Origin: Nannocystales bacterium
GTDB taxonomy: Bacteria; Myxococcota_A; Polyangia; Nannocystales; Nannocystaceae
NCBI GenBank assembly: GCA_050633305.1
Contig: JBOEGF010000024.1
Coordinates: forward strand, 96,001-160,000
Direction: 5' to 3'
Length of the DNA stretch: 64,000 nt
In this document: piece after piece, positions 25,012 to 25,451 of the stretch
How the letters are laid out: the number at the start of each line of letters is the position of its first letter
Position numbering within the stretch: position 1 is the stretch's first letter
Made by a program: the position numbers and the translations under genes
Notes under the pieces: generated by a model
Seen by the model: only the letters and a program-made list of their open reading frames with translations
What the model was told of the DNA's origin: nothing
The model's database searches: none

Positions 25012-25451
25012 GCCTCCTGGTCCGAGTCCGTGGGTTCTTCCCAAACCGACGATCCGGTCGAAGACGAGGAGGTGCCGGGGCCGGCGTAGTACGAGCCGCC
25101 GAAGTCCGTCGTGCTGCTGCTGGAGTCGCCGCCGGTGGTCGAGCTGGTCGAGCTGGTCGAAGCCGGCCCCGCGTAGTACGAGCCGCCAAAGTCCGTTGTG
25201 GAGCTTTCGTCGGCGGTCGTGCTGCTGCTCGTCGAGGCGTCGGTCGTCGACGAACTCGATGCTGACTGAGTGGTGGTCCCCGGTCCGGTCGATGCGCCCG
25301 TGTCCCCATCGCTGTCGCAGCCGACGAGACTGAGCCCCAAGGAGAGGCCGAGCACCGCGGCGGCTCTCGCAGTTCGCGAGGGTGCCTTGCAATGAGGGCA
25401 CACGGTCTCCGAGGCGACCACGAACTGATCACATGTCATGCAAAGTCTCAT
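25008..25451 (-). CDS. Putative rSAM substrate: Zn-ribbon leader + lipoprotein signal + Ser/Thr stalk with two identical Tyr cores
   Basis: MRLCMTCDQFVVASETVCPHC, LGLSLGLSLVGC, SSTTDFGGSYYAGP at 25164-25205 and 25077-25118. Confidence 0.82.
   Translation of the reverse strand: MRLCMTCDQFVVASETVCPHCKAPSRTARAAAVLGLSLGLSLVGCDSDGDTGASTGPGTTTQSASSSSTTDASTSSSTTADESSTTDFGGSYYAGPASTSSTSSTTGGDSSSSTTDFGGSYYAGPGTSSSSTGSSVWEEPTDSDQEA

Follow-up and report, generated by a model that had tools for sequence, protein, structure and literature searches.

A twice-repeated Tyr-Ala core in a ribbon-led myxobacterial precursor as a probable relaxed splice site, with a linked GT39-like gene

The window, by which we mean the whole stretch of 64,000 nucleotides analysed here, encodes a precursor in which one 14-residue sequence, SSTTDFGGSYYAGP, occurs twice. 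The repeat is a real feature under selection at the protein level, and it is probably the substrate core of a two-component spliceotide-type system, i.e. one without a Y protein, in which tyramine would be spliced out at a relaxed X-Tyr-Ala site. New here, as far as the literature searched shows, are a Tyr-Ala variant of the site of a known splicing reaction and a GT39-like gene linked to the GGSYYAGP version of that site. The genes and segments concerned are the following.

25008..25451 (-): precursor gene (P0001, 147 aa) with a Zn-ribbon-like leader, a lipoprotein-type signal, a Ser/Thr-rich body and two cores
25389..25442 (-): CxxC-x10-CPHC ribbon of the precursor, aa 4-21, homologous to the ribbon at the C-terminus of GDL-type (TIGR03913) enzymes
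25317..25364 (-): hydrophobic stretch and lipobox-like LVG-C (Cys45), a predicted lipoprotein signal
25164..25205 (-): core copy 1, aa 83-96, with X = Tyr92 (25176-25178), the conserved Tyr93 (25173-25175) and Ala94 (25170-25172) at +1
25077..25118 (-): core copy 2, aa 112-125, with X = Tyr121, the conserved Tyr122 (25086-25088) and Ala123 at +1
23680..25011 (-): splicease-like radical SAM/SPASM enzyme (P0002, 443 aa), with neither an RRE nor a Y gene adjoining
21705..23693 (-): GT-C/GT39-like membrane glycosyltransferase (P0124), its start overlapping the radical SAM stop by 14 nt

The core copies lie 29 aa (87 nt) apart and differ at 7 of 42 nucleotides in six codons (including TTT/TTC and GCG/GCC). 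All of these differences are synonymous, whereas the ten-codon flanks differ at 20 of 30 nucleotides on one side and at 19 of 30 on the other. An earlier note on this DNA had described an identical 14-residue motif occurring twice at this spacing and holding the only Tyr residues of the protein, and had read it as a sign of protein-level selection. All of this held up: the repeat is exact, Y92, Y93, Y121 and Y122 are the sole Tyr residues of P0001, and the substitutions are distributed as expected for such selection. An origin by chance or as an assembly artefact was ruled out by shuffling, by a second strain and by independent contigs. The longest exact repeat in 5000 shuffles of the mature region was 9 aa, as compared with the 14 observed. 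In the near-identical strain L056, 22 of 146 precursor codons differ; the six changes within the two cores are all synonymous, and the four amino-acid changes all fall outside them. Two contigs from other public runs (~91% alike) contain all three genes, for the precursor, the enzyme and the glycosyltransferase, in an unchanged order, and the precursor-gene indels among those listed are frame-preserving and located outside the cores.

The N-terminal ribbon of P0001, the stop codon of which overlaps the start of the radical SAM gene by 4 nt, is likely an enzyme-docking leader. Positions 429-457 of the TIGR03913 model match aa 2-30 (E 0.0014), and 12 of 21 ribbon residues are identical to the tail of an Azospirillum TIGR03913-family enzyme (pairwise E 2e-6). 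By these matches, the ribbon is an enzyme domain in the TIGR03913 family and a precursor leader here. Its four Cys and Cys45 are invariant among 27 aligned precursors. Hydropathy peaks at aa 30-45, and a lipobox-like motif is present in 114 of 124 related precursors, from which we infer that P0001 would be lipidated at Cys45; the 25-aa ribbon before the lipobox is not a normal n-region, while the hydrophobic stretch and the invariant Cys45 are in place. A profile search of P0001 gave no Nif11 match, and the protein contains no YG, both of its sites being Tyr-Ala. Direct protein searches with the precursor returned only two matches, each with two SYYAGP copies. The host genome (11.0 Mb, 66% G+C) encodes five splicease-like enzymes and 14 other ribbon matches, 13 of which are lipobox proteins with YG sites. 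Ten ribbon-lipobox YG proteins (G000 contigs C5, C14, C19, C43 and C49) are not adjacent to any close enzyme gene, with four of the ten clustered on C14 at about 10 kb from one enzyme gene, and this separation suggests processing in trans.

The best family matches of P0002 are TIGR04103 (381 bits, E 5e-114) and TIGR03913 (373 bits), both by a wide margin below the curated cut-offs of 725 and 591.75 bits, and the third-ranked family reaches 145 bits. The general domains PF04055 and PF13186 score above cut-off, and ten Cys are invariant in 154 relatives. A search for a solved splicease structure gave none, neither by sequence (6 matches, the best being SkfB) nor by fold. The enzyme is 42% identical to a TIGR04103-annotated enzyme of Nostoc, the Nif11 precursor of which reads ALYGLP. 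It also shares N178, W204, Q205, Q207 and all cluster Cys with this type I enzyme, a likeness that refers to the Nostoc protein and not to an alignment with PlpX, PcpX or RhaX themselves. From the type I systems PlpX/PlpY/PlpA and PcpXYA (TIGR04103, IPR026482), as portrayed in the accessible parts of PMC11002830, PMC9811515 and PMC5995677, the locus differs in its lower score, in having neither a Nif11-type leader nor a PlpY-like gene, in a C-terminal extension and in XYA for XYG. The GDL-motif maturases (TIGR03913) have the same Cys4 ribbon and likewise non-Gly sites. There, however, the ribbon forms the C-terminal domain of the enzyme and the DUF1843 precursors are short helical peptides, whereas P0002 has no ribbon, its match stopping at model position 395 of 477 and the ribbon part of the model matching the precursor instead; nor is the precursor of the DUF1843 type. 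With regard to spliceotide systems in general, a SPASM enzyme homologous to PlpX and an adjacent precursor are both present and the X-Tyr-Gly motif is absent. Since the locus fails the XYG test and both NCBIfam cut-offs, we did not file it as a member of the known splicease families.

By analogy, the locus would work most like the binary spliceases RhaX, RcsX and RasX. As far as RhaX/RhaA, RcsX/RcsA and RasX/RasA of Rheinheimera are described in the accessible text of PMC11414181 and PMC11626197, both arrangements have a single radical SAM/SPASM gene beside the precursor, no Y protein, a docking leader element and more than one Tyr motif per precursor. They differ in that the sites here are X-Tyr-Ala and the leader is a Cys4 ribbon, in place of a helix like PlpY, and in that the system of the window has a lipobox, Ser/Thr linkers and a linked GT39-like gene with no adjoining protease or exporter. 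A second splicease-like enzyme, 58% identical to P0002, is encoded with a ribbon-lipobox precursor at 12520-14944 (-) of the window; in this precursor, a Cys-rich domain that looks folded comes after a CGGFYGGC site, an arrangement that recurs in several relatives.

In the splicing reaction set out in passages of PMC9811515 and PMC5995677, all of the Tyr except its C1 is removed, and this C1 joins the C1 of the preceding residue (PMC9811515). If P0001 is processed in this manner, the precursor would dock on the radical SAM enzyme through its Zn ribbon and each core would be threaded into the barrel, as suggested by the model presented below. By analogy, a tyramine unit would be cut from the second Tyr (Y93, Y122) and its C1 joined to the carbonyl of the first, and homology predicts an alpha-keto-beta-Tyr amide before Ala, with a mass change of -135.068 Da (-C8H9NO) per site. 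Since the +1 residue keeps all its atoms in the reaction, Gly would reflect a preference of fit and not a chemical need, and Ala would be chemically allowed. The exported and putatively lipidated protein would then show two ketoamides with an aromatic side chain, which is the usual shape of inhibitors of serine and cysteine proteases.

The earlier note had treated Tyr-Ala as an oddity of a single locus, a view that a survey of the family overturned. For this survey, 72 family genomes were searched, 60 of which had an enzyme match at E up to 1e-150, and the fetched loci included 80 further listed matches and 52 downstream flanks, some of the listed matches being left out. Of 186 loci, 169 contained an enzyme; 160 of these were distinct, and the 154 of sufficient length were kept. 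Ribbon precursors adjoin 131 of the 160 distinct enzymes. For the 132 enzymes with at least 52% identity, the precursors were YG-only in 63 cases, YA-only in 39 (two of them the window and its close strain), mixed G/A in 3, YT in 2, mixed G/T in 1 and YS in 3, and not found in 21; these labels follow custom pattern rules under which at least three rows count as "none" in error (cores are seen in L103, L035 and the C23 paralogue) and one YG-like site (L099) was left out of the count. The 22 more distant enzymes had YG in 12 cases, none in 10 and YA in 0. In a tally free of such rules, comprising 105 short and complete precursors among which kin are not independent, the residue after Tyr was Gly 108 times and Ala 65 times out of 222, with a background Ala frequency of 8.4%, and 41 of the 105 had no YG at all. 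Gly and Ala are exchanged between sister motifs (VTYAGP/VTYGGP, STYAGP/STYGGP, AAYAGP/AAYGGP, FIYAAP/FIYGAP, PPYAGA/PPYGGA and SFYAGC/GFYGGC), and these exchanges recur in separate branches. Both types occur beside one enzyme in 3 loci and within a single precursor in L066. Judging by these patterns, Tyr-Ala is a family-wide relaxation and not a one-off, and the enzyme family would accept Gly, Ala and sometimes Ser or Thr at +1.

Thr or Ser at +1 was seen in L086, L090 and L148 (YTVS) and in L094, L164 and L182 (YSVA, YSCP). Of the six partnered enzymes, 4 have Ser at column 86, and positions 136, 138 and 176 are altered as well. These loci appear to be the strongest candidates for a genuine change of specificity. 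Outside the ribbon precursors, DUF1843 precursors beside GDL-type enzymes (L237:1734-2447 and L236:1549-2249) have Tyr-Ala or Tyr-Met along with Tyr-Gly paralogues: LYAAG and MYAAS beside PYGAG in Aureibacter (Bacteroidota), and MYMA beside LYGG and PYGV in Azospirillum (on an alphaproteobacterial plasmid). In many loci (L005, L081, L082, L087, L089) the precursor is often downstream of and convergent with the enzyme gene, outside its operon, so that mining on the same strand would miss it. Scott et al. 2022 (Chem 8:2659) reportedly defines the splicease types and may cover YA sites or these myxobacterial precursors.

A pattern of this kind does not by itself prove a product. The DYG of RcsA is stated in PMC11626197 to stay unmodified beside a real splicease, so the motif alone is no proof of processing. 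The YA sites could accordingly be bound by the enzyme and spliced poorly or never, being kept so that the enzyme, a receptor or the glycosyltransferase can recognise them, with an unspliced glyco-lipoprotein as the product. Two further observations fit this reading. The glycosyltransferase tracks the GGSYYAGP motif, and in the accessible parts of the papers searched (among them PMC10533398, PMC9811515, PMC10849128, PMC11002830, PMC10373908, PMC5995677, PMC11414181 and PMC11626197) splice sites are XYG only, with no non-Gly site described; Scott et al. 2022, Lakis 2022 and Morinaka 2018 lie outside this scope. Nevertheless, the enzyme is intact (10 of 10 Cys) at all 39 YA-only loci, the precursors of which have no core-like YG, and most of these loci lack such a glycosyltransferase. 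Retention of a coupled enzyme without a usable site is improbable, and we regard this explanation as unlikely.

Splicing at YA sites would also agree with the residues around the Tyr. Y93 and G95 are invariant in the precursor alignment and align with the Tyr and the second Gly of xYGGP precursors, although the 27 aligned rows were picked for having such motifs and only their register is informative. At 68 YA sites, the preceding residue is Thr (36), Tyr (10), Phe (8), Ala (6), Asp (4), Pro (2), Ser (1) or Ile (1). Since the first Tyr position varies and the second is kept, the second Tyr would be the site and the first a variable X.

A contrasting explanation is that the clade of the window has changed its chemistry to an oxidation or crosslink at Ar-Tyr-Ala (-2.016 Da), e.g. 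a three-residue cyclophane from Tyr92 to the beta-carbon of Ala94, or a Tyr-Tyr link. All 13 loci of the window's enzyme subclade (SH-aLRT 99 in a quick tree) for which a precursor was found carry a non-Gly site, and 11 of these 13 have Tyr or Phe at X, a uniformity that leaves room for a specialised reaction; Ala, moreover, has a beta-carbon where Gly has none. The Nannocystis proteins P0023 and P0025 belong to this enzyme clade too. Yet X is aromatic at only 18 of the 68 YA sites in the family as a whole, two members of the subclade itself read AEYSVA and LSYAAP, and Gly and Ala are swapped between sisters with the same pocket. The models of crosslinking maturases, WgkB and DynA, score 67.5 and 50.6 bits against P0002, as compared with 381 for TIGR04103. 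Taken together, the pattern speaks for ordinary tyramine splicing at a relaxed X-Tyr-Ala site, with keto-beta-Tyr as the result; an aromatic crosslink is the less favoured outcome and, in our view, quite unlikely. Of the two outcomes put forward in the earlier note, the non-canonical YA splice site thus stands as a deduction from the Ala in the register of Gly and the conserved second Tyr, and the aromatic crosslink is disfavoured.

The enzymes themselves contain no residue specific to YA: a column separating the 48 enzymes with non-Gly partners from the 63 with Gly partners was sought and rejected. The highest mutual information for YA versus YG was 0.38, at variable surface positions. Tyr at column 37, in the barrel, occurs with YG only (21 of 21), and other residues there with both kinds (48 non-Gly, 54 Gly), including Leu, Trp, Ile and Phe. 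This column may offer a weak, clade-bound lead to a specificity gate. These enzymes belong to few clades, and Trp at this position goes with YA, so a simple size argument fails. One 12-residue pocket string is shared by 7 YA-partnered and 3 YG-partnered enzymes. In the modelled pocket, N178 and Q205 are invariant in both groups, and V39 is present in 37 of 42 YA-partnered and 60 of 63 YG-partnered enzymes.

To place the cores relative to this pocket, we used a complex model that comprises the enzyme, precursor aa 1-105, SAM and three clusters. It scored 0.83, against 0.00 for the best control. Among solved pairs, 116 of 157 reach the mark applied, as do 2 of 215 mismatched ones, our own alignments and ligands lying outside this calibration. 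The runs agree in at least 86% of contacts, with a partner pLDDT of at least 58. The modelled ribbon docks on enzyme residues 258-263, 275, 343-344 and 371, with precursor aa 7-10 and 19-20 touching the enzyme, and aa 85-99 lie in the barrel, A94 against V39 and V86, and G95 against T115, S138, N178 and Q205. The solved radical SAM-peptide complexes SuiB-SuiA and ChlB-ChlA (17-19% identity) may have guided the modelled fold. Neither Tyr is among the 25 best contact pairs, and the cofactors are unscored, for which reason the assignment of the reacting Tyr is taken from conservation. The modelled interface (aa 85-99) includes both Tyr, and the model is silent on which one meets the radical. Splicing might instead use the first Tyr, with Ser-Tyr-Tyr as X-Y-+1 and keto-beta-Ser as the product, or both Tyr in turn. 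Close relatives replace the first Tyr by Phe, Thr, Asp or Ala and keep the second, and except in these YY motifs Tyr is nowhere common at +1 (11 of 222), which makes this variant very improbable.

The X-Tyr-Ala splicing that we favour may not be the only modification of P0001. P0124 matches PF13231 (PMT_2) at 27.5 bits, just above the cut-off of 26.1, resembles an atlas GT39 cluster (0.97, 196 of 256 features) and has eight hydrophobic segments. GT39 enzymes need an Asp-Glu pair, according to the part of PMC11727336 that treats it, and Asp43-Glu44, close to the N-terminus, is kept in at least 90% of 28 sequences, so that P0124 has both the PMT-type membrane domain and the pair. These two traits and a secreted, Ser/Thr-rich candidate substrate are shared with the actinobacterial GT39 protein O-mannosyltransferases portrayed in the same source. 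The match is nonetheless weak, and P0124 stands in a peptide-modifying cassette, whereas the GT39 enzymes described there act on Ser/Thr. In the accessible text of the literature searched, no splicease-linked glycosyltransferase is mentioned.

Full-length orthologues of P0124 (E <1e-120) were found in 5 of 72 family genomes, the next best match being partial (4e-44), and in 5 of 400 genomes of the class, which are the same five. Each of the five has the gene next to the enzyme gene and a GGSYYAGP precursor. Three genomes, all of one genus, show a tandem order; in the two others, from a second genus, the precursor is convergent and the glycosyltransferase divergent. By comparison, none of 25 loci with glycosyltransferase paralogues has a radical SAM gene or a ribbon precursor within ~1.5 kb. 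In a protein collection, 11 of the 18 closest enzyme homologues match a glycosyltransferase homologue in the length of the longest contig, as opposed to 0 of the next 101. The distances of 12 such enzyme/glycosyltransferase pairs, that of the window included, are correlated (rho 0.83, 0 of 5000 permutations); both signs are indirect and partly due to kinship. On this conserved linkage, P0124 is a third, co-conserved member of the module, one that the earlier note leaves unmentioned. The pattern (S/T/W/C)YYAGP gave 16 matches in the DNA of the 72 genomes, 10 in six known precursors and 6 in unrelated frames; a reversed-pattern control matched equally often, so single matches of this kind mean nothing.

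An ECF sigma factor and a Ser/Thr kinase-TPR protein are encoded by a pair of genes divergent from the precursor at 25438-28633 (+) of the window. The pair was considered for membership in the module and left out because its position varies or it is missing: it is upstream here, downstream in L274 and absent from L275, L269 and L268. Similar pairs near other enzyme loci (L011, L066, L274) perhaps indicate a loose regulatory link.

Of the six Tyr-Tyr loci in the subclade, five have the glycosyltransferase (L005 does not), as against 0 of 6 genomes with Phe, Glu or Ser at X (84-93% complete). The association with Tyr at X has a Fisher p of 0.015, where kin are not independent and all precursors have Ser/Thr-rich linkers. 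Going by this linkage, P0001 is the most likely acceptor of the GT39-like enzyme, which would add sugar on the outer side of the inner membrane, either to the Ser/Thr linkers or to the hydroxyl of the retained Tyr. The product could then be a glyco-lipo-spliceotide, with Tyr-Tyr-Ala spliced to keto-beta-Tyr and sugar added by the GT39-like enzyme to a lipid-anchored surface protein, a composite that we put forward tentatively and hold to be doubtful as a whole. In its boldest form, drawn from the distribution over Tyr-Tyr and other loci, the sugar would sit on the retained Tyr hydroxyl and tune or mask a protease-inhibitor warhead; in the plainer form, the linkers would be glycosylated on Ser/Thr.

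The XYG rule has guided both splicease mining and the design of splice tags for protein labelling, and the mining approach in the accessible text of PMC10849128 uses the frequency of YG beside the enzyme. If YA is spliced, such mining has missed more than one third of the family loci (39 YA-only among 111 with a labelled precursor), and natural enzymes would be at hand for Gly-free tags and for keto-beta-Tyr, -Thr and -Phe. With natural pairs such as VTYAGP/VTYGGP, the part that the +1 residue plays in the radical mechanism, itself unsolved, can be tested directly. The presence of the linked glycosyltransferase suggests that backbone splicing, lipidation and glycosylation come together in one small surface protein, the carriers of which are predatory myxobacteria.

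Two further features were seen in the window.

15312-15848 (+): small membrane protein in which six QGYPPA-like repeats stand in tandem, with a short domain at the C-terminus
20361-21440 (+): 359-aa ORF flanked by short repeated stretches

The second of these is reminiscent of a Y1/REP-associated transposase.
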